A stretch of DNA of 64,000 nucleotides from Thermoleophilia bacterium (GTDB lineage Bacteria; Actinomycetota; Thermoleophilia; UBA2241), in NCBI GenBank assembly GCA_040776965.1, contig JAXGZO010000001.1, positions 593,419 to 657,418 on the forward strand, read 5' to 3'. The stretch's first letter is position 1; each line of letters begins with the position of its first letter. Shown in pieces: positions 1,848-61,352 of this stretch. The position numbers were made by a program, and so were the translations under genes. Under the pieces are notes generated by a model that saw only the letters and a list, made by a program, of their open reading frames with translations, was not told the DNA's origin and searched no databases.

Positions 1848-2546
1848 GTGGCACTTCTTCGCATCTCCCTCTATGCGTTCGCTCACTCCGTGAGCAACGG
1901 TCGTCCTTCATCGCGCTCGGGCGCGGGGCGACGCAGCCTGAAGGCGGCGTACACCGACGGCGCCAGGGCTCGCGTTTTGCGGTTGGGCGCCGTGCTGGCG
2001 AGGCGGGGGGTCACGGCCAACATGATCACCCTCACCGGCCTCCTCGTGCACTTCTTCGCGCTGCCACTCATTCTCACCGGGCGGTTTCTCGGGGCGGCGT
2101 GCATCTTCGCCCTGGCCGCCATCTGCGACCTCCTCGACGGTGCGGTGGCGCACGCCGGCGCCGGGGCGACTGTAGCCGGCGCTTTTTTGGACTCCACCAC
2201 CGACCGCATCTCCGAGCTCCTCGTGTTCGGCACGCTCGCCATCTTCTTCGCGCGCGCCGGTCGCTGGCCCGAGATGGTCGCCACACTCGTGTTCCTCGGA
2301 GCGGCGCAGATCGTCTCGTACGTACGCGCGCGCGCCGAGGCCCTCGGTACGGAGTGCAAGGTGGGGTTTATGTCGCGCCCCGAGCGGGTGGTGGGGTTAG
2401 GTCTCGGCTTTATCTTCAGTAGCTACGCCATCGCGGGCGTCAACGTGCTTACCTTCATGGTTTTTCTACTCGCTACGCTCACCACGCTCACCGCTGTGCA
2501 TCGCATCGTGTACGTGATGCGAAGGCTTCGCCGCATCCAAACCTGA
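1848..2546 (+). CDS. CDP-alcohol phosphatidyltransferase, phosphatidylinositol-phosphate synthase-like (PgsA1-like). Start uncertain, possibly GTG 1992.
   Basis: Shows the D-x2-D-G-x2-A-R...G-x3-D-x3-D signature ([11 protein letters not shown]...[11 protein letters not shown]). Aligns to M. tuberculosis PgsA1 (RVxLTPxxVT...ISYxRARAE). Lies immediately upstream of ino1. Confidence 0.75.
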
Positions 2547-2694
2547 GCTCGCGCCTCACCCTCGTACCCTCCCTCTTGAGCGTGGGTCGCGTGGTATACT
2601 CGCCTTCGTTCTCATTAGCCCTCGGTGTGTCCATTATCCGAGGTTCGCGAATTCAAGCGGTCGATCGACCGTGTTATGTGGAGGTTTACCGATC

Positions 2695-3798
2695 TTGGGC
2701 AATCCAGTGCGCGTCGCGATCATCGGCGTTGGCAACTGTGCTTCGTCGTTCATTCAGGGTGTTGAGTTTTATAAAAACGCGAAGAAGACCGACTTCGTAC
2801 CCGGCCTCATGCACCCCGTGCTCGGCGGGTATCACATCAGCGATATTGAGTTCGTAGCGGCTATCGACATCGATAAGCGCAAAGTCGGTCTCGACCTCAG
2901 TGACGCGATCTTTAAGGCCCCTAACAACACCGTGAAGTTCTGCGATGTGCCGAAGAAAGGCGTCCAGGTGGTGCGCGGCATGACGCACGATGGCCTCGGC
3001 AAATACCTCTCGGAGGTTATCGAAAAGGCTCCGGGTTCCACCGCCGATATCGCCGGTATCCTCAAGGAGACGCAGACCGATGTGGTGGTTAACTACCTGC
3101 CGGTGGGGAGCGAGCAGGCCACGAAGTGGTACGCCGAGCAGATCCTCGCGGCCGGCTGTGCCATGGTCAACTGCGTCCCCGTCTTCATCGCCCGCGAGCC
3201 GTACTGGCAGCGCCGTTTCGTAGAGGCCGGTGTGCCCATAGTGGGCGACGACATCAAGAGTCAGGTGGGCGCCACCATTGTGCACCGCGTGCTCACCCGT
3301 CTCATGCGCGAGCGCGGCGTTAAGCTCGAGCGCACCAGCCAACTCAACGTAGGCGGCAACACCGACTTTCTCAATATGCTCGAGCGCGAGCGCCTCGAGA
3401 GCAAGAAGATCAGCAAGACGAACGCGGTGACGAGCCAGCTCGACTACGATATGGGTGCCAAAAACGTCCACATCGGTCCGAGCGACTACGTGGAGTGGCT
3501 CGACGATCGTAAGTGGGCGTACGTGCGCATGGAGGGTCGTACCTTCGGCGATGTGCCGCTCAACATCGAGCTCAAGCTCGAGGTCGTGGACTCCCCCAAC
3601 AGCGCGGGTATCGTGATCGACGCCGTGCGGTGTGCCAAGATCGGGCTGGACCGCGGTCTCGCCGGCTCGCTTGAGGGCCCCAGCAGCTACTTTATGAAGT
3701 CGCCGCCGGTGCAACACCCCGACGACGTCTGCCGCCGCATGACCGAGGAGTTCATCGCCGGAGAGGGCGCCGGCGCGACCGCAGTCTGCCAGGGCTGA
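2695..3798 (+). CDS. ino1: myo-inositol-1-phosphate synthase (MIPS/Ino1)
   Basis: TTG at 2695 sits 10 nt after GGAGG (2680-2684). Near-colinear identity to mycobacterial Ino1 ([22 protein letters not shown], [17 protein letters not shown], [26 protein letters not shown], SPNSAGxxIDAVR). Confidence 0.92.
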
Positions 3799-3833
3799 AC
3801 CGCGTACGCGCGGGCGCGCGGCCCCGTCTTTCC

Positions 3834-5729
3834 GTGAAGAGCCTTAAGATCGGCGTCTTTACCCCCTTCTCGTGGGGGTCGACATCGGGCGTTAACAGGC
3901 AGGTCCAGGCGCTCGTCGGCCGACTCACCGCGCGCGGCCACCGTGTGACGGTGATCGCCCCCGGCACCGGCCACCTCCTGGCCGCCGAGACGGGGCGGCG
4001 GGTGAGTGGGTTTTTGGCCGGCGAGCGTTCGGCGCCATTCTCGCCGGATGCCCCGTACCCCCGGCTCTTCCTCCTCGACCCGGCGTACGCCGTCCGCGAG
4101 GCTCGCCGTCAGCAACTCTCCTTCGCAGCCTCGGCCGGGTTCGTGCCCGAGATCGCCGCACTGCTCTCGGCGGAGGACTTCGACCTTTTGCACCTCCACG
4201 AGCCGTTCGTCTCGGGGGTCGGGCCGGCGATCGTGCGGCACGCGATGTGTCCGGTGGTCGCGAGTCTCTACGACGACCCCGAGCGTTTAGAATCGTTTCG
4301 GGGAGCTCGCCAGCGGATGCAAGAGCTCTTCGACTCCCTCGACGAGGCGATCGCCGTCTCGGGTGTCGCGCGCGACGCCGCTGCGCTCGCCCTCCCGGGT
4401 CCGTACCGCGTGGTCCCACTCGGCGTCGATCTCGACGCTTTCTTTCCGGATGACGACGAGGCCTCCGGCCCCCTTCGGCTGGTCTTTAGCGGGCGGGATC
4501 CTCGTCGTCAAGGGCTCAGCGTCCTCCTGCAGGCGCTGCGCAACCTCGTAGATCTCGCCCCATCGGTCACGCTCGACGTGTACGGCGCTGGCTCCTTTGA
4601 GCGGCGCTACGCGCGGCTTATCCCCCCGGCGTTCGCTGACCGCATTACCTTTCATCGAGGGGAGCCGAAGGGGGCGCGGCCGGAGGCCTTTCGCCAAGCC
4701 GATATCGTCTGCGTGCCCTCGCTCGCCCCCGCTATCGCCGAGGTGACGGTGCTCGAGGCGATGGCGAGTGGCGCCGCTGTGGTCGCCTCGGCCGTCCCGG
4801 AGCACGAGGAGATCGTGCAGCACGGCCGCAACGGCCTGCTGGTGCGGCCGCGCGATTCGGTCAAGCTCTCCGCCGCGCTCCGCGAGCTCATCGTCGACGC
4901 CCCTCTTCGGAGACGGCTCGTTGCTCAGGCTCATTGCGACGTGCAGCAGTACGGCTGGGATCGTGTGCTCGACGAGCTCTGCTCGTGCTACGGCGCGGCG
5001 GCGCGGCGGCGAAAACCACCTTCGCTTCGTCCCGCTCATCGGCGTCAGCTGCTCGCCGACCTCCACGTGCATAGTTGCCACAGCAAGGATTCCATCGCCC
5101 CGGTGAAGGGTATCCTCGAGCGCGCCCACGCGGTGGGGCTCGACGTGGTGGCGATCACCGACCACGACACCGTGGAGGGCGGCCTTGAGGCGCGCGAGAT
5201 CGCCGACCGTTACGGCGTGCGCGTGATCGTGGGCGAGGAGATCATGACGAGCGAGGGCGAGGTCATAGGCCTCTTTTTGGAGCACACGATCCCACCCGGT
5301 ATGAGCTTCGTCGAGACGATCGCGGCGATCAAAGAGCAGGGAGGGGTGGTCACGGTGCCGCACCCGTTCGACCGGCTCCACAAGGTGCCCAGTCCTCGGC
5401 TTTTGCGCGAGAACGTCGCCGAGATCGACGCCATCGAGGTCTTTAACTCGCGGCTCTTGCTGCCGCGGTGCAACGACCTCGCTGAGCAGTTCGCCCGTCG
5501 CTACCGGCTACCGGCCGTCGCCGGGAGCGACGCTCACGTGCTCCCCGGCATCGGGACGGCGTTCTGCGGCATCGAGGAGTTTGATGGGGCGGAGGACTTC
5601 GTCGCCGCCCTCGCCGAGAGCACTATCGTGCGCCGCCCACGTAGTCTCATGTATCTGCAGTCACTTAAGTTCATCCAGACAAAACTCGTGCCCGCACGCA
5701 TCGGCGACCGAGAGGGTCAGCCAGCCTAG
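3834..5729 (+). CDS. Fusion protein: N-terminal GT4 glycosyltransferase (PimA-like) and C-terminal PHP-family metal-dependent phosphoesterase
   Basis: N-terminus has the GT4 fold and EX7E-like region (VVASAVPEHEEIVQHGRNGLLV). C-terminus has PHP motifs (DLHVHSxHSKDS, ITDHDTVEG, PHPFDR, GSDAHV). GTG start. No clear RBS. Confidence 0.8.
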   Translation: MKSLKIGVFTPFSWGSTSGVNRQVQALVGRLTARGHRVTVIAPGTGHLLAAETGRRVSGFLAGERSAPFSPDAPYPRLFLLDPAYAVREARRQQLSFAASAGFVPEIAALLSAEDFDLLHLHEPFVSGVGPAIVRHAMCPVVASLYDDPERLESFRGARQRMQELFDSLDEAIAVSGVARDAAALALPGPYRVVPLGVDLDAFFPDDDEASGPLRLVFSGRDPRRQGLSVLLQALRNLVDLAPSVTLDVYGAGSFERRYARLIPPAFADRITFHRGEPKGARPEAFRQADIVCVPSLAPAIAEVTVLEAMASGAAVVASAVPEHEEIVQHGRNGLLVRPRDSVKLSAALRELIVDAPLRRRLVAQAHCDVQQYGWDRVLDELCSCYGAAARRRKPPSLRPAHRRQLLADLHVHSCHSKDSIAPVKGILERAHAVGLDVVAITDHDTVEGGLEAREIADRYGVRVIVGEEIMTSEGEVIGLFLEHTIPPGMSFVETIAAIKEQGGVVTVPHPFDRLHKVPSPRLLRENVAEIDAIEVFNSRLLLPRCNDLAEQFARRYRLPAVAGSDAHVLPGIGTAFCGIEEFDGAEDFVAALAESTIVRRPRSLMYLQSLKFIQTKLVPARIGDREGQPA

Positions 5730-5823: not shown

Positions 5824-6426
5824 GTGGCACAACCCAGCGAGATCTACGACAAATACCTTGCGCGGGCGATCGCTGAGATCAACGAGCTCACCGGCGAGAT
5901 TCTTCATTGCTCTCGCTGTAAGTACACGCGGATGATGCCGGTCATCGGCTCCGGGCACCCCATGGCCGACGTCTTTTTGGTGAAGTACCGCGTACGCCCC
6001 TCGGAGTTGCAAGAGGGTGTCGCCTTCTTCGGGCGCGCGGGCTCGGCGCTCATGAAGAGCTGTCAGCGCCTCAAGGTGGACCCCCTGCAGATCTACGGCA
6101 CCAACGTCATTAAGTGCAACCACCTGCGCGGGGTGCGCCCGGAGGGGCACTGCCTCGACCACCTTCGTCGCGAGCTGGCTGTGGTGGGCCCCAAGCTCGT
6201 CGTCGCTATGGGGAGCGAGACGGTCGATGCGCTCAACGCGGCCGAGGTGCCGCTCGCGAGCCCGCTCACGTACCAGCCGGGTGAGATCCTCGAGTTCACA
6301 CCGGGCGTGGAGGCTCTCATCACCCCCGACATCGACCTCTGTCTCGACGAGCAGCGCCTCAAGGCTTCCTTCTGGAGCGCCTTCCGCCGGCTCGGGGATT
6401 GGTACGCAGACACACCGCCGTTTTAG
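5824..6426 (+). CDS. Uracil-DNA glycosylase superfamily protein (family 4/5-like)
   Basis: CxxC near the N-terminus, a GxGxPxAxxxxV(G/K) region (IGSGHPMADVFLVKYR) and size around 200 aa. GTG start. Confidence 0.65.
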   Translation: MAQPSEIYDKYLARAIAEINELTGEILHCSRCKYTRMMPVIGSGHPMADVFLVKYRVRPSELQEGVAFFGRAGSALMKSCQRLKVDPLQIYGTNVIKCNHLRGVRPEGHCLDHLRRELAVVGPKLVVAMGSETVDALNAAEVPLASPLTYQPGEILEFTPGVEALITPDIDLCLDEQRLKASFWSAFRRLGDWYADTPPF

Positions 6427-6429
6427 CGT

Positions 6430-7197
6430 ATGCTGAGCCGCCGGCCCGAAGCGTCCGAGTGCACCTCCTCGCGTTCGCTCCTCTCCGGGCGGCGTATCGC
6501 GCTCGCCTGTGCGGCCGCCGCGCTGATCGCGGCGTGGGGGGCGGGTAGCGGTTGGCTCCCCGTGCTCGCCGACGCGCCCAACGCCTTGATCTCCTCGGCC
6601 GTGGTGCTCTCCCTCGCCGGCCTCTTCGTCTGGGCCCTCCTGCCGCTCCAGGCGCTCGGCCGGCGCCTTCCGCTCGTCACCGTGGTGGCGCTGCCGCTCG
6701 CCGTGCTCTTGGTCTGGCTCGGCTGGATCCCACTCGCCAACGTCGCCAAGGTGCTCGCGGCGGCTGCGCTCGGCATCTGGATCGCCTTCGAGATAGAGCA
6801 GCTCAGCTGGATCGTCGCGGTGGCCGCCGTCTCCACGCTCGTCGACATCATGAGCGTTGCCGTGGGGCCCACCAAGGCTATCCTCGGCCAGGGGCCGGTC
6901 GTGGTGGGGTACTTCACCGTCGCCATCACCTGGATGGGCTACGCCTTTACGGAGGGGTACTCGGGGTTGGGGGTGAGCGACGTGATCTTCTTCGCGCTCT
7001 ACCTCGGCGCCGCGCAGCGGTTCGGCTTGCGGGTGGGGTGGAGTGCGGTGGCCATGGTGGCCTCGTTTCTCGTCACGCTCGCCGTGGCGTTGTGGTGGCG
7101 GGCACTGCCGGCGCTGCCGCTGCTCGCCGTGGCCTTTTTGTGCACCAATGCCGATTTAATCTGGGCCCGCCTGCGGCGGCCCGGGCCAGCGGTGTAG
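6430..7197 (+). CDS. Integral membrane protein (multi-TM), unknown function
   Basis: ATG at 6430 overlaps the preceding stop. Highly hydrophobic with GC-rich codon usage. The alternate frame 6552-7301 is Arg/Ala-rich and rejected. Confidence 0.55.
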   Translation: MLSRRPEASECTSSRSLLSGRRIALACAAAALIAAWGAGSGWLPVLADAPNALISSAVVLSLAGLFVWALLPLQALGRRLPLVTVVALPLAVLLVWLGWIPLANVAKVLAAAALGIWIAFEIEQLSWIVAVAAVSTLVDIMSVAVGPTKAILGQGPVVVGYFTVAITWMGYAFTEGYSGLGVSDVIFFALYLGAAQRFGLRVGWSAVAMVASFLVTLAVALWWRALPALPLLAVAFLCTNADLIWARLRRPGPAV

Positions 7198-7233: not shown

Positions 7234-8379
7234 TTAGAGGTCGGCGAAGTGCTCCGGGGTGCCCTCGTAGGCGACCACGTTATTTTTGCCACTCCGCTTA
7301 GCCTTGTACATCATCTCGTCGGCGATCTTTACGAGAGCGTCAACGCCCATGTGGGCGGGGGCATTAACAAAGCCCACGCTGCAGGTGAGGGTGCCGATAG
7401 TTGCGAAGGTGTGGGCCTCCACCTCTGAGCGCACGCGCTCCGCAATCGTTGCTATCGTGGTGCTCGGTGTATCGGGCATGAGCAGGAGAAACTCCTCTCC
7501 GCCCCAGCGAATGATGCCGTCGTCCATCCTGAGGCACTCGCGCAGGAGGGCTGCGAACTCTATGAGCGTCTCGTCGCCGACCTCGTGGCCGTAGGTGTCG
7601 TTGATGGTTTTAAAGTTGTCGATGTCGAACAGGATGGCGGCTATCATGTGCTTCGCTTTATTGTTCTCCGTGAGCTCTTTGACCCTGTAGGAATACCAGG
7701 TACGGTTATTGAGTCCGGTGAGCTTGTCGGTGACAGACATGCGCTCAAGTTCCTTTTGCTGCACGTATTTTTCGCGCTTCGATATATTGCTTGTGCGTTT
7801 AAACCAGGATAAAAATACTATTGCAAGAACGAGATAAGATACAGACTGTACGTAGTCGATCTTGTCTTTACTGTGAAGTGTAAAGAAGCTTGCTGCTATA
7901 AATGCGAGTGCAGCGAGCGTATTCATGATGGAGAATCGAGTCCACTGTATGTGGAATACAGAGGTGAATATCATCATGAGCATTATTGCCGATACCTGAT
8001 ATGGATAGTCCTGATAATCAAGAGCTATAATCATATAGGAATAAGTCAGCATTATTGTGAGCAATGCGATCACTATACATATATCAAGCAATGTATAGCT
8101 ATTGACACGCTTAATGACCCTGCTGATGATTACACAAACAAGAAGATCAACGGTTCGCGCCGCGATAGAATGAGCTATATCTTGCGGTGGCGCCTCGTAG
8201 TCGAGCAGGAAGAAAACTAAAAATATAAGCCCGGCATAAAGGATGAGTCGCGCAGTTCTCGCTTTAGTCTCGAGTACGAGGGAGTCGCCGTATGCGCGCT
8301 CGAGCTCGGTGTCGTTAAACTTGCCCCAGGCGTTGATGTAGTCGGGGCGCCTTCTGAAGATCGAGTTGCCGAGTATCAT
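7234..8379 (-). CDS. Membrane-anchored diguanylate cyclase (multi-TM N-terminal domain plus GGDEF domain with GGEEF active site)
   Basis: Carries RxGGEEF, an I-site-like RxxD, DxLTGLxNR and KxAKRSGKN. The N-terminal half is polytopic membrane. ATG at 8379. Confidence 0.85.
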   Translation of the reverse strand: MILGNSIFRRRPDYINAWGKFNDTELERAYGDSLVLETKARTARLILYAGLIFLVFFLLDYEAPPQDIAHSIAARTVDLLVCVIISRVIKRVNSYTLLDICIVIALLTIMLTYSYMIIALDYQDYPYQVSAIMLMMIFTSVFHIQWTRFSIMNTLAALAFIAASFFTLHSKDKIDYVQSVSYLVLAIVFLSWFKRTSNISKREKYVQQKELERMSVTDKLTGLNNRTWYSYRVKELTENNKAKHMIAAILFDIDNFKTINDTYGHEVGDETLIEFAALLRECLRMDDGIIRWGGEEFLLLMPDTPSTTIATIAERVRSEVEAHTFATIGTLTCSVGFVNAPAHMGVDALVKIADEMMYKAKRSGKNNVVAYEGTPEHFADL

Positions 8380-11053: not shown

Positions 11054-11452
11054 CTACAGCGCCGCGAGCACGCTCACGTGCACGCGGCGCCTGCGCGGGC
11101 CGTCGAACTCCGCGAAGTAGATACCCTGCCAGGTGCCGAGCTCGAGGCGTCCGCCTTTGAGGGGCACGAGGATGCTGCTGCCGATGATGCTCGCCTTGGC
11201 GTGCGCGTCGGCGTTGCCCTCCGCGTGCGCGTAGCTCTGGCTCTCGGGCACGAGGCGGTTGAGGATAGCGGTGAGGTCGGCGCGCACCGAGGGGTCGGCG
11301 TTCTCGTTAATAGTGACGCCGGCGGTGGTGTGGGGAATATAGACCATCACGGCGCCGTCGGTGCCGCCCATGGTGCGGACCGCCGCCTCGACCTCCGCGG
11401 TGATGTCGACGAAGGTGGTGCGGCTCGGTGTTTGGATGTCGAGGGTCTTCAT
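11054..11452 (-). CDS. YjbQ/UPF0047 family protein (secondary thiamine-phosphate synthase-like)
   Basis: Full-length match to the YjbQ family pattern (TxxVDITxxV...YIPHTTAGxxINENADPxVxxDL...HxxGNxDAHxK). Confidence 0.85.
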   Translation of the reverse strand: MKTLDIQTPSRTTFVDITAEVEAAVRTMGGTDGAVMVYIPHTTAGVTINENADPSVRADLTAILNRLVPESQSYAHAEGNADAHAKASIIGSSILVPLKGGRLELGTWQGIYFAEFDGPRRRRVHVSVLAAL

Positions 11453-12111
11453 ACGGGTCTCCTTTTCGCCCTGAGGCGGTCGAAGGGGGACGAGCGCCGG
11501 CGGTGGGGGGTGGTGTGCCCTCGCTTAATGGCGGCCACCACATCGGCGGTGGAGCGGATGGAGTCGGGGAACTCGGTAGAGCACCGCATGATGCGGTCGG
11601 CCTCGTGGGCGTCGCTGCCGCCGGTGCGGGGCAGGCCGAGGCGCTTCGCGATGGCCTCGGCCTCCGTTACGTAGCGCTTGCCGAGCCAGTTGCCGTTGTA
11701 CACCTCGACCGCGTCGATGAGGTTGGCGACCTCGCGCTCGAGGCCGGTGTAGTAGACGGAGCGGCTGCGCCCGCCGCCCGCCGTCGGATGCACCCAGACC
11801 ACGGCGGCGTCATCTGGCACGTCGCCGGGGCGTGGTGCCGGCTGCACGTCGCGGAGCGTTGTGAGAAAATCAGGGTCCGGCGAGAAGACGACGAAGTCGC
11901 CGTACTGCGTGCTGATCTCGACGCCGCGGATGAGGAGGATTCCCTTCGCTGCGAGCAGGGGCTCCAGCGCCACGTTGTCGCTCAGGTCGCCGTGATTGGT
12001 GAGCGCAATAGCTCGTATGCCGCCTCGCACGCAGCGCTCGATGTACTCCTGCGTGGAGATCGCGGAGCAGCGGGAGGCGGGAAAGGTGTGCGTATGCAGA
12101 TCGATGAGCAT
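11449..12111 (-). CDS. PHP-domain metal-dependent phosphoesterase
   Basis: LHTHTxxS, LTNHGD and GGSDAHE motifs. 4-nt overlap with downstream yjbQ. Confidence 0.8.
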   Translation of the reverse strand: MLIDLHTHTFPASRCSAISTQEYIERCVRGGIRAIALTNHGDLSDNVALEPLLAAKGILLIRGVEISTQYGDFVVFSPDPDFLTTLRDVQPAPRPGDVPDDAAVVWVHPTAGGGRSRSVYYTGLEREVANLIDAVEVYNGNWLGKRYVTEAEAIAKRLGLPRTGGSDAHEADRIMRCSTEFPDSIRSTADVVAAIKRGHTTPHRRRSSPFDRLRAKRRPV

Positions 12112-12278: not shown

Positions 12279-13961
12279 GTGGAGAGAAACGAGAGCAGGG
12301 TGCAGGAGGCAACGGGTCTCGGTAAGAGACTTCCGGAGATCTACAAGTTCTTCCCGCAGGGCGCCGACAGCGGGGTTGCTCTTCACATCGGCTACTGTCG
12401 CGGGCGGGGCGAAGTCACTTGGGAGGACTCGATCCTCGCGTTTCCCGGTATCGAGACCACCGTCTTTGAGTACTCGCCGCTCGGCGGCCTCTCGTTTCTC
12501 CTCGAGAGCGGCGAATGCTTGCTCTACAACGGTGCGTTTGAGCGCATCGAGGAGCTCCCGGACGATCCCGGGGAGAACGTCATCATCGCCTTCACGCAGA
12601 AGGACATCGTCGTCTTCTTTAAAGAGACGCACATCGGCGAGATTACGGTATGCACGCTCATCGACATCTCCTCTCGGCTCAAATACCTCGAGGCGATTAT
12701 CGCCGAGAACGAGCAAGATAGGCTGACGGGGCTCTTTAACAGGGCATCCTTCCTCAAGCGGTGCCGCAAGCTCCTCCTCGGCGGCGGCTTCGGCGCGATG
12801 GCCTACATCGACCTCGACAACCTGAAGAACCTCAACGATGCGTGGGGGCACGATACCGGCGATCGCTACTTGGTCGCCCTCGCCGACTGGCTTCAGAGCT
12901 TCTTTGAGGAGATGCCGCGGGAGCGTAGGGTCTTTAGCCGCCTCTCGGGCGACGAGTTCGCGGTCTTCGTGGGCGGGTTTGAGAGCGAAGCCGAGAGGGA
13001 TGCTTGCGTCAACGGGTTCAACGAGACTCCCCCCTTCGCGTTGCCGGACGGTAAAGAGGGGAAGCTCTCCTTCTCCACCGGCGTGGCGAGGTACCCGGAG
13101 GACTCCACCGGTATCGACGACCTCCTCGTCTACTCCGACTTCGCCATGTCGCTCGTGAAGCGCAACGACAAGGGGTCGATTCGCTTCTTCGAGCGCCGCG
13201 AGCACGACACGTTCTGGAGCCTCTCCAAGGGCTTGGCGGATCTCGACCAGATCATTCGGGAGCGCGATATCTTCTTTAATTACATCCCGTACGTCTCGAG
13301 CGATTCGGGCGCGCCCGCGATCTTCGATCTCTTCCCGGTGAGCTCGCTCGAGAGCCTCGAGAACATCGAGCGCATCGCCCTCATCGGCAAGCACAGCCAT
13401 CGCCTCGGCGAGCTCGACCACCTCGTCTACGAGCTGATCGTGGAGGAGCTCACCCTGCTGGCCGACCTTAAGTTCGACCAAGTGGTCGCCCTCGGCTACA
13501 TGCCGCAGGACCTCCTCTACCACGGTAAGCTCGAGGAGCTGTTGTGGCGCTCCAACTTCCCCTCGCAGCGCCTCTGTCTCGTCTTCGACTCGGAGATGCG
13601 CAGCTACTACGACTACATGCGGACCATCGACGGCATTAACCAACTCGGCATGCTCTTCGGCTTCCGCAACTACACGCCGAAGACCTCCGCCGTTGCCTTC
13701 GAGTTCTCGCCCCACATCGTGCGCCTCAGTGAGGAGTTCGTGCGGGACTGCAGCGCCAATGTGGAAATGCAGGAGGAGATCCGCACGCTTAAATCCCAGG
13801 CCAAGGCCTCGGGGTTCAGTATCGTCGCCGGGCACATTTCTTCGGCTGCCGATTTCGAGTTCTTGAAGGGCTTAGGTATCGACCTGCTTGGTGGGCCAGC
13901 CGTCTTCGGCGATGTGAGCAGGGGCGAGATCGAGTCCATCGCGCGCACTACGCTCTTTTAG
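12279..13961 (+). CDS. Signalling protein: N-terminal unknown domain, GGDEF domain (SGDEF variant) and degenerate EAL-like C-terminal domain
   Basis: DRLTGLFNR and RLSGDEFAVF lie in the GGDEF core. The C-terminal region has EAL-like blocks (FRNYTPKTS ~ DDFGTGYSS; IVAGHISSAADFEFLKGLGIDLLGG ~ AEGVET...GQG) but lacks the E-A-L and catalytic residues. Confidence 0.8.
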   Translation: MERNESRVQEATGLGKRLPEIYKFFPQGADSGVALHIGYCRGRGEVTWEDSILAFPGIETTVFEYSPLGGLSFLLESGECLLYNGAFERIEELPDDPGENVIIAFTQKDIVVFFKETHIGEITVCTLIDISSRLKYLEAIIAENEQDRLTGLFNRASFLKRCRKLLLGGGFGAMAYIDLDNLKNLNDAWGHDTGDRYLVALADWLQSFFEEMPRERRVFSRLSGDEFAVFVGGFESEAERDACVNGFNETPPFALPDGKEGKLSFSTGVARYPEDSTGIDDLLVYSDFAMSLVKRNDKGSIRFFERREHDTFWSLSKGLADLDQIIRERDIFFNYIPYVSSDSGAPAIFDLFPVSSLESLENIERIALIGKHSHRLGELDHLVYELIVEELTLLADLKFDQVVALGYMPQDLLYHGKLEELLWRSNFPSQRLCLVFDSEMRSYYDYMRTIDGINQLGMLFGFRNYTPKTSAVAFEFSPHIVRLSEEFVRDCSANVEMQEEIRTLKSQAKASGFSIVAGHISSAADFEFLKGLGIDLLGGPAVFGDVSRGEIESIARTTLF

Positions 13962-51933: not shown

Positions 51934-52428
51934 TTAGGGCAGCGCTTGCTGGTAGGCGACGAGTGCCGGGAGCTTGGCGGGCAGCTCGCTGCTACGCAGG
52001 CTCGTCAGCTCGTCGTCGTTGCGGAGTGAGATGCGGAACTCCACCTCGGGGTGAGTGGCCACCACGACGAGAAGGCTGGTGGCCACATCGCCGAGCGGTG
52101 GACGGTCGACGTTGTTAAGGCTCATATGGACGCGCACGGATGCACCGCCGAGCTCCTCGGAGCGGCCGAGTGCGAGTCCGCCACCGCTCGCCTCGGCCGC
52201 TTGTCGAAAGAGGCTGAGGCCGAGGCCGGTTTTTTTGGTCGGTTTCGTCGTGAAGAAGGGGTTGAGGGCCTCGCTGGGCTGCACCGGAAGGCCCGGCCCG
52301 TTGTCGTCGATAGCCATAGTGAGGCTGTCGCTGGCGTGATCGGCCGCGATGTCGACGGCGATGATCGTCGCTCCGGCGCGGAGCGAGTTCTCGAGAATAT
52401 CGAGGAGGTAGAGCGAGAGATCATGCAT
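51934..52428 (-). CDS. Stand-alone histidine-kinase-like ATPase (HATPase_c) protein
   Basis: N-box/G-box-like DDNGPGLP and GLGLS motifs. No HisKA/DHp domain or phospho-acceptor His region. Confidence 0.75.
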   Translation of the reverse strand: MHDLSLYLLDILENSLRAGATIIAVDIAADHASDSLTMAIDDNGPGLPVQPSEALNPFFTTKPTKKTGLGLSLFRQAAEASGGGLALGRSEELGGASVRVHMSLNNVDRPPLGDVATSLLVVVATHPEVEFRISLRNDDELTSLRSSELPAKLPALVAYQQALP

Positions 52429-53161
52429 CGTCGACGCTCCTGCCGTGCTCGCCGCGCAGTGCGGCGGCGAGCTCCGTGAACGACGGATTGGCCACGTGCA
52501 GGGTGGTGCGTACGGCGCCGATATCGCTGAGGTAATGAGCGTCTGATGAGTGCAGGATCGGCAGGCCGTGGATGCGGAACTCCTCCTCGGCGGGGGAGCC
52601 GGGCGCGATGTGGCGGGAGAGCTCTACGGCGTCGAAGCCCGCGTCTGTTGGGAAGAAGCCGAGCTGGCCGATGGCGCCGAACGTTTTGCGGTCGATATGC
52701 GCGGCGACCGCGAGGCCGCTGTGACGGTGGATGAGCGCTGCCGTGTCGTTGATGTCGAGGAGGGTGGCCATCGCGAGGGCCTTCTCCTCTGTGGCGAGGA
52801 GCTCGCCGGCGGCGCTGAGGACCGACTGGGTGCCGAAGAACGCCTCGTAGCCGTCGTCGACGGGCGGTAGCGACGCCCCCGCCTCCGCGGCCGCCGCCTC
52901 CGCCGCCTCCGCGGTGGGGAAGAGGCCGACGACGTGGCACTCCTCGGCCGAGGTGATCTCCATGCCGGCGAGCACGACGAGGTAGTCGCCGGCCGCCTCT
53001 TGCACGGCAGCGACGTTGCGCGCACTGTTGTGGTCGCAGATCGCGATCATCCCGAGGCCTTCAGCCAGCGCTCGCTCGACGATAGCCGCCGGGGTCATAC
53101 TCTCGTCCGCGCAGGGTGAGAGCGCCGTGTGAATATGGAGATCGGCGAAACAGTGGTTCAC
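52421..53161 (-). CDS. PHP-domain protein (hydrogenase-operon associated)
   Basis: Motifs DLHIHTALSPC, ICDHN and HSSDAHY. Confidence 0.8.
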   Translation of the reverse strand: MNHCFADLHIHTALSPCADESMTPAAIVERALAEGLGMIAICDHNSARNVAAVQEAAGDYLVVLAGMEITSAEECHVVGLFPTAEAAEAAAAEAGASLPPVDDGYEAFFGTQSVLSAAGELLATEEKALAMATLLDINDTAALIHRHSGLAVAAHIDRKTFGAIGQLGFFPTDAGFDAVELSRHIAPGSPAEEEFRIHGLPILHSSDAHYLSDIGAVRTTLHVANPSFTELAAALRGEHGRSVDDA

Positions 53162-57345: not shown

Positions 57346-58632
57346 ATGAAAGTAAATATGGAAAAAAATACCATTAGAAAATACCATCGAATTGAATTAC
57401 CAGCAAAAGTAAGAATAAATGAAAAATGGCATAATGTAAAAGATTGGTCTCTTGGTGGATTCATGGTAATGGATGTCACCGATGTTTTTGAAAAAGAGAT
57501 AAATTATGACGTAAAGCTTCTATTGCCATTTGATAGCGTAGAGATAGTAGTAGATGTTACAGCTAAAGTAGCTTGGTCGAGAAATGACAGAGCTGGGTTT
57601 TCTTTTGTAAACCTTAGCTCGAAAGCTAAGAATATACTAAAGACTTATCTAAAGGATAGCATAGAGGGAAATCTAGGTGAAATAGACGGTGTTTTAGCGT
57701 ATGTAGATGCACAAGAAATACCACTCCCTATAGAAACTCCAATGACCTCTAATGAAGAGATAGATTTTCAGAGGTCGTTCTATAAAAGAAGCATTCGCTA
57801 CATTATTATAGCATTGGCAGTAGTTGCAATTGCACTAATTATTGTGTTCTCAACTATGACAAGAGCGACAAGTTTAAGGGCAGTAGTATCATCAGCAAAA
57901 GTCAACGTAGATGCTCCATTTGATGGAATGGTAACAAATATATATGTTAAAAGTGGAGACTCTGTAAAAAAGAATCAAATTTTAGCCATATTAGATAATG
58001 GTGATATAAAGAGAAGCGTGGAAACACAGCGATATGCGGTTTTAGCTTCAGAGAAAGAGCTACATGAAGCAAAAGCATTACTAAGAATGGCTAAAAATGG
58101 TAAGTATGTATACAGTAAATATTCTGCAAGCGCAAGTTTATCAATTCTTAATTCAGAAGTTGGAGTTAAGGCTCAGAAGCTCAATGAGGAAAAATCTAGA
58201 TTACGAGAGCTTCTCAGTGAGCTCGACAAGGCAAATCTACGGAGTCCTTGTGATGGCTTTGTTTATGTCTGTAAGCCCTCTATAGGATCAAGCGTTCGCA
58301 AATACGATCAATTCTTTATACTCCAGCCTAACGAAAATGCAAATATGTACATACTTGCTCGATTTACATTTGACGCAGCTAAGGGTATTTCACCTGGAAG
58401 TACAGCAGATGTATTTATTCCATCGCTGGGTAAAAGAGTAAAGGGAACGGTTCGATCTATGGGAACCCAGGCACTTGGTGGCGCAGAGGGATCTCTTGAT
58501 TTAGAGATAAGCACACAAGAGGTTCCAGTTGCTATTGTATTGAATGACAATAGTTTGAATTTGAAAAGTGGTATCTCAGCAATAGTAGATGTAAGAACTC
58601 CAATTAAAGCAAGGTTAAAGCGCATACTGTGA
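57346..58632 (+). CDS. PilZ domain - TM - HlyD-like membrane-fusion-protein fusion (Alg44-like c-di-GMP-binding co-polymerase architecture)
   Basis: PilZ motifs R(K)xxxR (IRKYHR) and D/NxSxGG (DWSLGG). Single TM. Biotin-lipoyl-like MFP hairpins (DAPFDGMVTNIYVKSGDSV; SPCDGFVYV). Coding sequence is ~35% GC. Confidence 0.8.
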   Translation: MKVNMEKNTIRKYHRIELPAKVRINEKWHNVKDWSLGGFMVMDVTDVFEKEINYDVKLLLPFDSVEIVVDVTAKVAWSRNDRAGFSFVNLSSKAKNILKTYLKDSIEGNLGEIDGVLAYVDAQEIPLPIETPMTSNEEIDFQRSFYKRSIRYIIIALAVVAIALIIVFSTMTRATSLRAVVSSAKVNVDAPFDGMVTNIYVKSGDSVKKNQILAILDNGDIKRSVETQRYAVLASEKELHEAKALLRMAKNGKYVYSKYSASASLSILNSEVGVKAQKLNEEKSRLRELLSELDKANLRSPCDGFVYVCKPSIGSSVRKYDQFFILQPNENANMYILARFTFDAAKGISPGSTADVFIPSLGKRVKGTVRSMGTQALGGAEGSLDLEISTQEVPVAIVLNDNSLNLKSGISAIVDVRTPIKARLKRIL

Positions 58633-61352
58633 GAAAAGTTTACTGCGAATCAACTCCTAGAATATTAACGACAAAAGACGCCGTTCTAAAGTCTCTTAGA
58701 GTTACTATTCTTTATATAGCTGTTATTGCCATCTTTCTCTCTCTTATACCAGAGGAAGCTTGGTATATAAAAGGGCATAGTGGGTTGATCGTTATAGGTG
58801 TGTTCGGAATATGGCGATACTCATGGCAAGTTATTCATATTATCAGAATGCTCATTTACCGCATGAAGAGATTCCCTGTCATGCGAGAAGAGGCATGCAG
58901 GCTAGAGGATAAATATCCAAAAAGACTCTATTTCGTTATTCCATCATACTTTGAGATGCCTGAGATAGTTTTAAAGGTATTCAAATCAATTATGGATGAG
59001 TGCTCTTCTTTGCCATGCGAAATGATTTCAATAATCATGAGTGTTGGATCGCAAGAAGAAGTAAATCATATAAATAAATTTGCAATAGAGAACTACGATC
59101 TAAGAAATGTGAAAATCACGTTCATGATCCAAAAATCAGGCAAGAGAATTGCAATGGGTCATGCTCTAAGGGCTGTATCAAGGGATTTCAATAGAGTATC
59201 TCAATGGGATGAGAGCAACAAAGATGATCTAGTTGTAATGATGGATGGTGATGCAGTATTAGTGAGTGGAATACTTGAGAAAACTCTACCATTATTTAAA
59301 ATAAAACCAAATCTTGGCGTTGTTACTCCAAATAACATAGCGCTCTCAATACATCCCGATAGCATATTTCAAATCTGGTATCAGCTGAAATTTATGCAGA
59401 GAAATCATACATTTCAGTCACATAGTTTGTCGAAGAGAATTCTGACAACTACCGGAAGATTTTGTGTTTATCGTGCCCCAATTGTCGTTGATAATGAGTT
59501 TATTAAGTTCGTTGAAACAGACCATATCGATCATTGGATATTCGGGCGATTCAGGTTCCTTATGGGCGATGATAAAAGTACATGGTTTTATTGCCTAAAA
59601 GAGGGATATGAAATGCTCTATATCCCTGATGCTCATGTGCTATCAATTGAAGAGCGATCTAAGGGATTTTTTAAAACATCCATATCTCTTATGAAGAGAT
59701 GGTATGGTAATACATTAAGAAATAATAAAAGAGCAATTATGCTCGGTCCAAAAAAGATGGGATTTTTTATATGGTGGTGTCTAGTTGATCAAAGATTGAC
59801 AACATGGACACCACTTGTTGGTCTTGTAAGCTCGATAATGTTATCGATATTTATTTCTCCATATTATTTTATGTTCTATATGATTTGGGTTTTGATAACA
59901 AGACTTTTGATGTCATGGGTTTATGTTCTGCAAGGAATGCGTCTGAGGGTAGAACATATTATTATTATGATATATGTACAATGGGTTGGCTCAATTGTAA
60001 AGCTAATAACAATGTATAATTTAAAAAAGCAGTCATGGGATAAGGGAGAAAGTAGTGATTCAATTTATGAAGAATTACACGGTATCTTTCCTGTTTTCCA
60101 AAAATCCATTAGACATATGATGGTTGGGTTGAATATATTTATACTATTTATCTTTTGTGGACTATCGACGCACGCTCTTTCCGTTCCGCCACTGGCATTT
60201 TTTAAGGATTTTTTCACAATACAAGCAGCGGAGAGGCCGTCTTCTAGGGTGATAAATGCTGCTGAATTCGGAGCAGTAGGGAATGATTCAGTAGCTGACG
60301 ATGTGGCAATAAATAAAGCCATAAGATCGGTAAGCAGCGATGCGCAAACTACACTACAGTTGCCATCTGGAAGGCTTATACTTAATGCTCCAATACGTGT
60401 AAATAAAAGTAATATAACTATCGCCGGCGATAAAAATTCATCCACGATACTAGACTCTCATTTCTCCATAAAAGAAGGATCATCAGCAATAGTAGTTAGC
60501 GGAGATAAAGGTGCTAGTATCGGAAGTCTATCTGTCGACGCGAAAAAAAATGACGAAGTACTCCTGATAGATCCTCGATATAAATCTGAGAGTACATATA
60601 AAAATGCAGAGTATATATGGATCGGAACTCCAAATACAAAAGAATTTCTCGATAAAATAGGATCAAAAGAGTGGAATAGAGAATATCCGTGGCTTCGACA
60701 GACGATCGTTCAATCATATAGCATAAGCAAGGATGCTATTAAAATACTTAAACCGCTATCTTTTGACATGCCAGAAAAAGCAGAAATTTACGCTCCAAAT
60801 ATTATTAGAGGAATTACTATTAAGGATTTATCATTAACGCAAGCTGTTCCGAATATGAAAACTCAGCAAGCGAAGTCACAGTACAGAGATCTTGCATCAA
60901 AATATGCAGTTAACGGAATAAGCTTTGAGTGGGCTGCTCATTCAGCTGTTGAGAATGTTACTATTGACTACGCAGGGAGAAATCCAATATCGCTGGAGAA
61001 TTCGTACTCTGTAAATATGAAGAATCTCCACATCGATGGATCGTGGAATAAGGGAAAAGACGGTAACGGGTACGTGAGGTTTTCTCGTTCTTATTACTGC
61101 TCGATAGCTGATAGTGAGATAAAGGATATAAGACACCTGGTATTTCAGTGGAGCTCTTCTCATAATACCGTTGAGCATTGCAAGATATACGTCGATGTCA
61201 ATTTCCACGGCGGATTCAGCCACGATAACCTCGTTACCGGATGCACTATCAGCCCGCCGGACTCTCATCCCTGGGGTAGGGTCACTCGGATGAAGAAGGG
61301 CGGGTCGCACTGGGCCCCGGCGGACGGTGAGGGCAACGTGGTGAGGCGGTAG
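58629..61352 (+). CDS. Membrane GT2-family polysaccharide synthase fused to a C-terminal right-handed beta-helix (polysaccharide lyase/epimerase-like) domain
   Basis: GT2 core (DxD-like DGD, QRLTTW resembling QxxRW) flanked by TM helices. The C-terminal ~380 aa shows beta-helix repeat character (NxTIxG, VxNxTI). GTG overlaps the upstream stop. The gene is low-GC except for the last ~150 nt. Confidence 0.75.
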   Translation: MRKVYCESTPRILTTKDAVLKSLRVTILYIAVIAIFLSLIPEEAWYIKGHSGLIVIGVFGIWRYSWQVIHIIRMLIYRMKRFPVMREEACRLEDKYPKRLYFVIPSYFEMPEIVLKVFKSIMDECSSLPCEMISIIMSVGSQEEVNHINKFAIENYDLRNVKITFMIQKSGKRIAMGHALRAVSRDFNRVSQWDESNKDDLVVMMDGDAVLVSGILEKTLPLFKIKPNLGVVTPNNIALSIHPDSIFQIWYQLKFMQRNHTFQSHSLSKRILTTTGRFCVYRAPIVVDNEFIKFVETDHIDHWIFGRFRFLMGDDKSTWFYCLKEGYEMLYIPDAHVLSIEERSKGFFKTSISLMKRWYGNTLRNNKRAIMLGPKKMGFFIWWCLVDQRLTTWTPLVGLVSSIMLSIFISPYYFMFYMIWVLITRLLMSWVYVLQGMRLRVEHIIIMIYVQWVGSIVKLITMYNLKKQSWDKGESSDSIYEELHGIFPVFQKSIRHMMVGLNIFILFIFCGLSTHALSVPPLAFFKDFFTIQAAERPSSRVINAAEFGAVGNDSVADDVAINKAIRSVSSDAQTTLQLPSGRLILNAPIRVNKSNITIAGDKNSSTILDSHFSIKEGSSAIVVSGDKGASIGSLSVDAKKNDEVLLIDPRYKSESTYKNAEYIWIGTPNTKEFLDKIGSKEWNREYPWLRQTIVQSYSISKDAIKILKPLSFDMPEKAEIYAPNIIRGITIKDLSLTQAVPNMKTQQAKSQYRDLASKYAVNGISFEWAAHSAVENVTIDYAGRNPISLENSYSVNMKNLHIDGSWNKGKDGNGYVRFSRSYYCSIADSEIKDIRHLVFQWSSSHNTVEHCKIYVDVNFHGGFSHDNLVTGCTISPPDSHPWGRVTRMKKGGSHWAPADGEGNVVRR

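Follow-up and report, generated by a model that had tools for sequence, protein, structure and literature searches.

A PHP-family phosphoesterase domain fused to a PimA-like glycosyltransferase as a candidate phosphatidylinositol-phosphate phosphatase in Thermoleophilia

A 64,000-nucleotide (nt) stretch of a Thermoleophilia bacterium genome (contig JAXGZO010000001.1, positions 593,419 to 657,418, hereafter the window) carries a gene that joins a PimA-like family 4 glycosyltransferase (GT4) in frame to a metal-dependent phosphoesterase domain of the PHP family, directly downstream of a phosphatidylinositol-phosphate (PIP) synthase-like gene (PIPS) and of the inositol-phosphate synthase gene Ino1. 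From the sequence and its gene context we propose, with moderate confidence, that the PHP domain is a PIP phosphatase, which would supply a new candidate enzyme family for a known pathway step. The synthesis of phosphatidylinositol (PI) via PIP in prokaryotes has been known since 2010, and the PI-derived glycolipids of actinobacteria, the phosphatidylinositol mannosides (PIM), lipomannan (LM) and lipoarabinomannan (LAM), matter for tuberculosis. The locus as a whole is best explained as a compact operon for de novo PI synthesis and the first head-group modification in a Thermoleophilia-like actinobacterium, and it comprises the following features.

1848-2546, plus strand: PIP-synthase-like CDP-alcohol phosphatidyltransferase, 232 amino acids (aa), matching PF01066, NCBIfam models and M. 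tuberculosis PgsA1 (MtPgsA1)
2671-3798, plus strand: myo-inositol-1-phosphate (inositol-3-phosphate) synthase Ino1, 375 aa, matching PF01658 and TIGR03450
3834-5729, plus strand: GT4::PHP fusion protein, 631 aa, one uninterrupted open reading frame (ORF)
3840-5003, plus strand: PimA-like GT4 domain (GT-B), residues 3-390 of the fusion, matching PimA in sequence and fold
5004-5048, plus strand: basic linker RRRKPPSLRPAHRRQ, residues 391-405, variable in the alignment, with a predicted local distance difference test (pLDDT) score of 59-72
5049-5693, plus strand: compact PHP metal-dependent phosphoesterase domain, residues 406-620, matching PF02811 and PF13263

The three plus-strand ORFs (1848-2546, 2671-3798 and 3834-5729) have a coding-type composition, with a GC content of 0.81-0.82 at third codon positions (GC3) versus 0.40-0.52 at second positions (GC2). 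The identities that a first-pass annotation had given to them, PIPS, Ino1 and a GT4::PHP fusion, hold in Pfam, in NCBIfam and in matches to solved structures. No operon protein matches the PgpA family in Pfam or NCBIfam, the operon contains no LemA/Nudix gene, and neither a PatA-type acyltransferase nor a second GT4 is found within the 64-kb window. A scan for terminators and promoters between the operon genes gave nothing that exceeds chance.

The protein encoded at 1848-2546 is matched by the Pfam family CDP-OH_P_transf (PF01066) with an E value of 5e-11. Its top NCBIfam models, which outscore all others by far, are the archaeal archaetidylinositol-phosphate (AIP) synthase NF040950 and the PIP synthase NF045883, with 123 and 119 bits that stay below the equivalog cut-offs of 180 and 170. 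The first-pass annotation had called the protein alignable to MtPgsA1, which was borne out, as the closest solved relative is indeed the M. tuberculosis PgsA1 structure 6h53 (E 2e-22). The start codon is uncertain (GTG at 1848 or GTG at 1890), and relatives are 175-204 aa long. In the M. tuberculosis enzyme, R155 and R195 bind the phosphate of the inositol phosphate and reportedly occur in every PIP synthase (PMC4634129). In the alignment, for which MtPgsA1 numbering refers to residues 19-197 only, they correspond to R180 and R219 of the window protein, both of which are kept together with S132 and the RPER motif, while K135 is replaced by Arg. Both arginines are also kept in Thermoleophilia relatives and in the PIPS-like proteins of Chloroflexota and Saccharibacteria. 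Since these proteins keep the phosphate-binding arginines, their product should be a phosphorylated lipid, for which a phosphatase is required.

Class I CDP-alcohol phosphotransferases share the signature D1xxD2G1xxAR...G2xxxD3xxxD4 with eight absolutely conserved residues (PMC4634129). The window protein has seven of the eight, the Arg of DxxDGxxAR being replaced by His102 (codon CAC, 2136-2138), and the Arg is kept in all ten relatives compared, so that the His is confined to the window copy. Immediately 5' of this gene, a tRNA-Lys(CTT) at 1270-1345 is followed by about 500 nt (1346-1847) without a convincing gene. Relatives carry PAP2_3, HMA or VTT-domain genes at this place, and the gene-poor segment is possibly the scar of a deletion or rearrangement.

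Ino1 is recognised by Inos-1-P_synth (PF01658) with an E value of 6e-38 and 130 bits (cut-off 27), and by the actinobacterial model TIGR03450 with 557 bits over residues 13-362, covering 350 of the 355 model positions, the strict equivalog cut-off being 638. This full-length match agrees with the mycobacterial-type Ino1 that had been noted next to PIPS, and the protein is 71-73% identical to Ino1 from PI clusters of Chloroflexota.

In the fusion protein, Pfam places the GT4 domains (Glyco_transf_4 and Glycos_transf_1) at residues 18-383 and PHP with PHP_C at 409-596, and an AlphaFold2 (AF2) model of the full chain has a pLDDT of 81 and a predicted template modelling (pTM) score of 0.79. PimA (2gej/4n9w) is the top solved match of the N-terminal part with E values of 1e-26 to 2e-27, the next glycosyltransferase being at 1e-9; phmmer gives PimA 99 bits and the next glycosyltransferase 41, and a Foldseek search with the AF2 model also returns PimA first (E 1e-23, TM score 0.84, identity 25-26%). 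The PimA-like N-terminus reported in the first-pass annotation is thereby supported by both sequence and fold, and an MshA-like reading of the GT4 part was rejected as PimA fits better in both respects. The counterparts of the PimA HIHEP motif, H120 and E123-P124, are invariant in the family, and the PimA-like N-terminal motif is also conserved.

The EX7E motif of the GT4 part is less uniform. The PimA residue E274 is important for catalysis, and its equivalent, the first Glu of the motif, is Ala300 in the window protein (4731-4733), while the second Glu, E308 (PimA E282), is kept. Across the family, the first Glu is found in 35 of 38 members and the second in 34 of 38; the closest relative, P0001, shares the Ala at the first position, and in a further four members the second position is Arg or Gln. 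With Ala in place of the first EX7E Glu, the window copy is doubtful as a glycosyltransferase, and so, for this particular protein, is the channelling to a PIM-like product that the first-pass annotation had suggested.

By comparison, the PHP domain appears to be catalytically active, as its predicted site is complete and invariant and the domain is better conserved than the GT4 part (mean pairwise identity 75% versus 58%). The motifs listed in the first-pass annotation were all located, with HVHSCHS at 411-417, DHD at 443-445, PHPFD at 509-513 and GSDAH at 564-568. The predicted ligands for up to three metal ions are H411, H413, D419, H444, E468/E469, D566 and H568, none of which varies among the 38 fusions, and H510, which at least 90% of them keep. 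The losses in EX7E, seen alongside a PHP part that is the better conserved of the two, suggest that the GT4 module may be mainly a PI-binding, membrane-targeting partner in some members of the family.

Both PF02811 and PF13263 score above their cut-offs in the PHP domain, which is modelled with a pLDDT of 90.6 and whose nearest folds are the PHP domain of RNase AM, TM0559, PsfC and BAD_1165 at 16-26% identity. At about 215 residues the domain is compact and lacks the insert of about 80 aa that TrpH, RNase AM and Cv1693, which measure about 290 aa in all, carry: in alignments to 3e0f, 9etk, 2yb1 and 7ug9 the query jumps at about position 83 to about position 170 of the solved chain, and the window domain holds about 25 residues between the third and fourth core strands, where the TrpH/Cv1693 insert sits. 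NCBIfam equivalog scores for TrpH/YciV-Cv1693 are 49-54 bits against cut-offs of 375-400. An assignment to TrpH, RNase AM or pAp phosphatase was therefore rejected on the missing insert domain and the low equivalog scores. A library-wide search with the PHP domain returned 306 representatives at E<1e-30, in which the fusions rank first, followed by stand-alone proteins. Among them are two odd fusions (P0322 and P0389), one with dephospho-CoA kinase (CoaE::PHP) and one with LPG_synthase_TM, a lipid-related membrane domain. Their functional directions differ, the LPG_synthase_TM fusion speaking for a lipid role of the subfamily.

The window also encodes two other, stand-alone PHP paralogues at 11449-12111 and 52421-53161, both on the minus strand and about 30% identical to the fusion domain. 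One of them overlaps a YjbQ/UPF0047 gene, a pairing that is conserved in relatives, and the other lies within a DRTGG / Rex-like (CoA_binding and Put_DNA-bind_N) cluster.

The fusion is a conserved family and no peculiarity of this genome. The GT4 plus PHP architecture recurs in more than 120 protein clusters at 90% identity, the best being 61% identical, and those with a named source come from metagenome-assembled genomes of Thermoleophilia or Actinomycetota, where they are labelled just 'glycosyltransferase'. A metagenome scan added 80 loci with full-length relatives of the fusion, from 60% down to 35% identity, and in 75 of these the fusion is a single ORF. The separate GT4 and PHP genes of L088 and L089 were rejected as natural unfused forms; these assemblies are generally gene-fragmented (HSP70 is an example), and frameshift errors are the likelier cause of the split.

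Gene order is maintained along with the fusion. Ino1 lies upstream in all 31 metagenome loci that extend at least 2.5 kb in that direction and PIPS does so in 28 of them, the three loci without a visible PIPS being cases of ORF-calling overlap or contig truncation. The order CDP-OH_P_transf – Ino1 – GT4::PHP – uracil-DNA glycosylase (UDG)-like is found in all seven distinct genome or assembly contexts. Fusion homologues that occur mainly in genomes lacking PIPS and Ino1, which the first-pass annotation had named as the distribution speaking against its proposal, are thus not what is seen. In a divergent group, GNAT and beta-propeller/Vgb-lyase-like genes are inserted between Ino1 and the fusion; these are not enzymes of the pathway.

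Independent evidence comes from PHP proteins that have no glycosyltransferase attached. A genome scan with the full fusion, using exact peptide patterns, yielded matches to the PHP domain only and served as a sample of stand-alone homologues, namely 80 proteins of about 227 aa, 37-47% identical to the window domain and mostly from Anaerolineae. In five Chloroflexota loci the PHP gene lies 2.3-4.3 kb from a PIPS – GT4 – PatA-like acyltransferase – Ino1 cluster. A closer association is found in Saccharibacteria: at L075 the PHP gene is overlapped by a PIPS-like gene on one side and abuts a CarS/CDP-diglyceride-synthase-like gene on the other, with PIG-L nearby, and the same overlapping PIPS-like – PHP – CarS-like trio is present in three further Saccharibacteria loci that are just 55-60% identical.

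L075, 9265-11889: Saccharibacteria PIPS-like – PHP – CarS-like operon
L090, 4379-8998: Saccharibacteria PIPS-like – PHP – CarS-like operon
L092, 4378-7363: Saccharibacteria PIPS-like – PHP – CarS-like operon

The PHP proteins of these operons have 216-221 aa, are 39% identical to the window domain (tblastn) and share the motifs of the subfamily. The motifs GEEIxTxxGE(V/I)IGLFL, PHPF(D/E) and EV(F/Y)NxR are common to the three lineages and are not found in the two other PHP paralogues of the window. The CarS-like protein is of the CDP-archaeol-synthase type, scoring 139 bits against a cut-off of 148, and the trio reads as a complete path from phosphatidic acid (PA) via CDP-diacylglycerol (CDP-DAG) and PIP to PI. 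As the operon contains no glycosyltransferase, the substrate of the PHP protein there is most simply PIP itself, and the overlap between the reading frames of PHP and the PIPS-like gene is the kind of coupling expected of an enzyme that removes the phosphate left by PIPS. The operon also hints that glucosamine (GlcN)-inositol phospholipids are made via an archaeal-type cytidylyltransferase in these host-dependent bacteria.

Taken as a pathway, Ino1 would convert glucose-6-phosphate into inositol-3-phosphate, as is known for its family, and the PIPS-like enzyme, judged by its phosphate-binding arginines, would combine this product with CDP-DAG into phosphatidylinositol-3-phosphate (the PIP of this pathway). 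The PHP domain, as a presumed trinuclear-metal phosphoesterase, would then turn PIP into PI, to which the fusion and the operons of independent lineages point. The similarity to PimA suggests that the GT4 part binds PI at the membrane surface and, where EX7E is intact, transfers a sugar, probably mannose, to PI. It would also hold the soluble phosphoesterase at the membrane beside its lipid substrate, and this holding may be the main role of the window's own GT4 part. The first-pass annotation had already put the domain forward as a candidate PIP phosphatase, and this proposal is strengthened by the fusion, by the Ino1 and PIPS context and by the coupling in Saccharibacteria, from which we infer activity on PIP itself.

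The PIP phosphatase was called 'as-yet-unidentified' in 2015 (PMC4634129), and in 2022 the PgpA-like protein BT_1525 was shown genetically to be the PIP phosphatase of Bacteroides (PMC9246714). The mycobacterial enzyme was still described as 'as-yet unidentified' and 'long-sought' in July 2026, in a preprint that proposes the alpha/beta-hydrolase EphE (Rv3670) for this role, within a predicted complex with PimA and Rv2609c (bioRxiv 10.64898/2026.07.15.738315). An EphE knockout is PIM-deficient, and the phosphatase role is proposed there without biochemical proof (bioRxiv 10.64898/2026.07.15.738315). The earlier remark that the enzyme dephosphorylating PIP is poorly defined is therefore apt for Actinobacteria as of July 2026 and no longer so for Bacteroides, given BT_1525 (PMC9246714). 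Within the literature library searched, no paper links a PHP domain, phosphatidylinositol and a glycosyltransferase, and a PHP-type PIP phosphatase is a reasonable hypothesis, new to the literature, for a step that is itself known. If the domain does act on PIP, it would do the work of the PgpA-like enzyme of Bacteroides without being homologous to it.

Several observations weigh against this assignment. We know of no PHP-family enzyme, solved or characterised, that acts on a phospholipid. Among solved folds, those closest to the domain either cleave RNA or nucleotide phosphoesters (RNase AM, Cv1693) or have no assigned function, and none is a lipid enzyme. The CoaE::PHP fusion hints at nucleotide chemistry within the subfamily itself, and the C-terminal helix of the PHP part was rejected as an amphipathic membrane anchor, since its hydrophobic moment is only 0.1-0.3. 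No inositol gene occurs within 10 kb in 71 of the 80 stand-alone loci of Anaerolineae and other Chloroflexota, where PHP stands alone among cell-wall genes, with PBP, FtsW/RodA, FHA and MurJ on the opposite strand. Furthermore, both lipid enzymes of the window are atypical, PIPS by its signature Arg to His and GT4 by its EX7E Glu to Ala exchange, and these deviations could reflect functional drift, relaxed selection or an assembly error. Finally, the whole neighbourhood (RicT, TRAM methyltransferase, YjbQ, DnaK) is colinear in closer relatives, therefore synteny within the Thermoleophilia clade is partly inheritance; gene order that lasts to 35% identity despite inserted genes is more telling than this colinearity. 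An explanation that would take up much of this material is that the PHP domain does housekeeping work on nucleotides or RNA, as a phosphoesterase similar to RNase AM or pAp phosphatase, or is a helper that hydrolyses nucleoside diphosphates and removes the GDP or UDP formed by the transferase, its link to inositol genes being inherited synteny and not a common chemistry on PIP. The nearest solved folds and sequences (RNase AM, BAD_1165, Cv1693), the CoaE::PHP fusion, the location of most Anaerolineae homologues and the colinear clade neighbourhood are all in its favour, but we consider it unlikely, since the domain lacks the insert of about 80 residues found in the nucleotide and RNA enzymes, the in-frame fusion is maintained among relatives of 35-60% identity, in which the PHP part is strongly conserved, an unrelated phylum couples the protein translationally to a PIPS-like gene in an operon without a glycosyltransferase, and the two other stand-alone PHP paralogues of the window are available for such roles.

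The PAP2_3 membrane protein that relatives encode upstream of PIPS offers another solution: it could be the true PIP phosphatase, by analogy with PgpB acting on phosphatidylglycerophosphate (PGP), while PHP would cleave a different phosphoester and the PAP2_3 gene of this genome would lie outside the window. The PAP2 superfamily includes lipid phosphate phosphatases. Moreover, PAP2_3 is directly next to PIPS or overlaps it in 26 of the 27 metagenome loci with at least 3.5 kb upstream, a further point against PHP as the enzyme, and it is likewise beside PIPS in L085 (573-1340), L093 (3142-3951) and L089. We hold this to be just as improbable as a housekeeping role, because PAP2_3 was not found in the 64-kb window nor in the upstream flanks of L081, L083 and L088, all of which keep the PHP fusion, and because the Saccharibacteria operon has PHP and no PAP2. 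A search with PAP2_3 against solved structures gave no match, and its sole curated match, at 35 bits, is to the AUR1-like phosphoinositol-dihydroceramide synthase family of BT_1522, which counts against a role as PIP phosphatase: BT_1522 is a transferase without which B. thetaiotaomicron still makes PI, whereas BT_1525 from the same cluster is needed for it (PMC9246714). As an observation in its own right, PAP2_3 is present in most of the loci L094-L173, which suggests that many Thermoleophilia transfer phosphoinositol to another lipid or possess a second PIP phosphatase. Alternatively, glycosylation might come first, with GT4 acting on PIP or, as MshA does, on soluble inositol-3-phosphate, and PHP dephosphorylating the glycosylated product. 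Pairs or fusions of a glycosyltransferase and a phosphatase that work in this order are common, with precedents in MshA/MshA2, sucrose-phosphate synthase/phosphatase and trehalose-6-phosphate synthase/phosphatase; the structural matches of GT4 that rank next after PimA include MshA and sucrose-phosphate synthase, and Ino1 is adjacent. This order seems the least probable of the alternatives, as PimA is clearly the top match (99 versus 41 bits, TM score 0.84 versus 0.76), the PHP operon of Saccharibacteria has no partner glycosyltransferase, and members that lack one EX7E Glu, the window protein included, keep the PHP site, which is hard to square with an obligatory glycosyl transfer step.

Downstream of the fusion, the operon appears to continue with two genes.

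5824-6426, plus strand: UDG-superfamily Fe-S-type protein, 200 aa, with weak UDG matches, a constant companion of the fusion
6430-7197, plus strand: polytopic membrane protein, 255 aa, hydrophobic and multi-span, 3 nt after the UDG-like gene

The UDG-like gene is found 3' of the fusion in all 69 informative loci, and in the group with 35-39% identity its start overlaps the stop of the fusion. The protein scores 35 bits with PF03167 and 52 bits with the type-4 UDG model, whose cut-off is 250, and the comparison with family-4 UDG gave scores of 40-52 bits against cut-offs of 125-250. Family-4 UDGs are characterised by motif A, GE(A/G)PG, by motif B, HP(S/A), and by four Fe-S cysteines. In the UDG-like protein the cysteines are conserved, but a conserved KYxxRPSE stands in place of GE(A/G)PG, and HP(S/A) is absent; on these motifs it is probably not a DNA glycosylase. 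The 255-aa membrane protein has no match in Pfam or NCBIfam, and its gene is downstream in 36 of 57 informative loci, being confined to the closer relatives and missing from the divergent group.

Elsewhere in the window there are two GGDEF genes, at 7234-8379 on the minus strand and at 12279-13961 on the plus strand. In addition, a low-GC island at 57346-61352 on the plus strand (GC 0.37-0.55, against 65% for the genome) carries genes for a PilZ–HlyD-like protein and for a family 2 glycosyltransferase (GT2) of 907 aa with a pectate-lyase-like domain, and looks like a horizontally acquired exopolysaccharide synthase pair under cyclic di-GMP (c-di-GMP) control.

A wider proposal can be made, if only tentatively, for we think it more doubtful than the activity of the PHP domain by itself. 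In Thermoleophilia, in Saccharibacteria and in some Chloroflexota, the compact PHP subfamily would act as the PIP phosphatase, and would be the first lipid-phosphate phosphatase of the PHP superfamily and a third non-homologous solution beside BT_1525 and the proposed EphE. In Thermoleophilia it would be welded to a PimA-like module that targets PI or PIP and is catalytically degenerate in some members, including that of the window, and it would work with the always-co-encoded UDG-fold Fe-S protein that lacks the DNA-glycosylase motifs.

The step from PIP to PI becomes directly testable with a PHP domain that is soluble, easy to express and equipped with an evident active site, and the link between PHP and PIPS is seen as a fusion in one phylum and as translational coupling in another. 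If PHP is indeed a PIP phosphatase, a lipid substrate class would be added to the PHP superfamily, thousands of 'PHP domain-containing protein / glycosyltransferase' entries could be annotated correctly, and a minimal PI pathway of three or four genes could be rebuilt in E. coli. It would also be relevant to the production of inositol lipids by Saccharibacteria, which are ultra-small and depend on a host, and would provide natural support for a PIP phosphatase and PimA acting as one physical unit.

Among known systems, the mycobacterial pgsA1-patA-pimA operon (Rv2612c-Rv2610c), which serves the early steps of PIM formation, resembles the window in that it pairs the gene of a PIP synthase with that of a PimA-type GT4, and the mycobacterial PIM pathway, in which CDP-DAG and inositol phosphate (Ins-P) give PIP, then PI and then PIM1, follows the scheme proposed here. 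The window operon differs in having Ino1 inside and neither a PatA-type acyltransferase nor LemA/Nudix, and its GT4 differs from mycobacterial PimA, to which it is about 25% identical, by the added C-terminal PHP domain and by the loss of the E274 equivalent. EphE and the PHP domain are proposed for the same step, and for both the idea is a physical tie to PimA at the membrane, which for EphE, a protein of unrelated fold, is a predicted non-covalent association and for the window protein a gene fusion; the predicted EphE-PimA complex matches the logic of a covalent fusion of PHP to a PimA-like domain. Sucrose-phosphate synthase (GT4 with an SPP-like part; 6kih is among the structural matches) similarly joins a GT4 to a phosphatase-type domain, both serving one short pathway. 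Its fusions use a HAD-fold phosphatase that acts after the transfer and on a soluble sugar phosphate, whereas the window fusion has a PHP domain, likely a membrane-lipid substrate and likely the phosphatase step first.

The PHP-superfamily phosphoesterases RNase AM/TrpH (7ug9, 9etk), the 3',5'-bisphosphonucleotide phosphatase Cv1693 (2yb1), TM0559 (2anu) and the histidinol-phosphate phosphatase HisJ/HisK share with the window domain the distorted-barrel PHP fold and a trinuclear His/Asp/Glu site. The window domain is set apart from them by its compactness without the TrpH/Cv1693 insert, by an identity of 16-26% to the solved members and by its lipid-enzyme partners. The closest parallel in gene content is the BT_1522-BT_1526 cluster of B. 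thetaiotaomicron, which encodes MIPS (myo-inositol-phosphate synthase), PIPS, the PIP phosphatase and an AUR1/PAP2_3-like gene (PMC9246714). The PAP2_3-PIPS-Ino1-GT4::PHP order of the relatives corresponds to this parts list with PHP in the place of BT_1525. While genetic proof belongs to BT_1525 alone, and the window candidate is a glycosyltransferase-fused metalloenzyme of PHP fold unrelated to PgpA, the Bacteroides cluster, with its phosphatase beside PIPS and MIPS and with an AUR1-like gene dispensable for PI, offers a precedent for reading the PHP domain as the PIP phosphatase of the Thermoleophilia operon.

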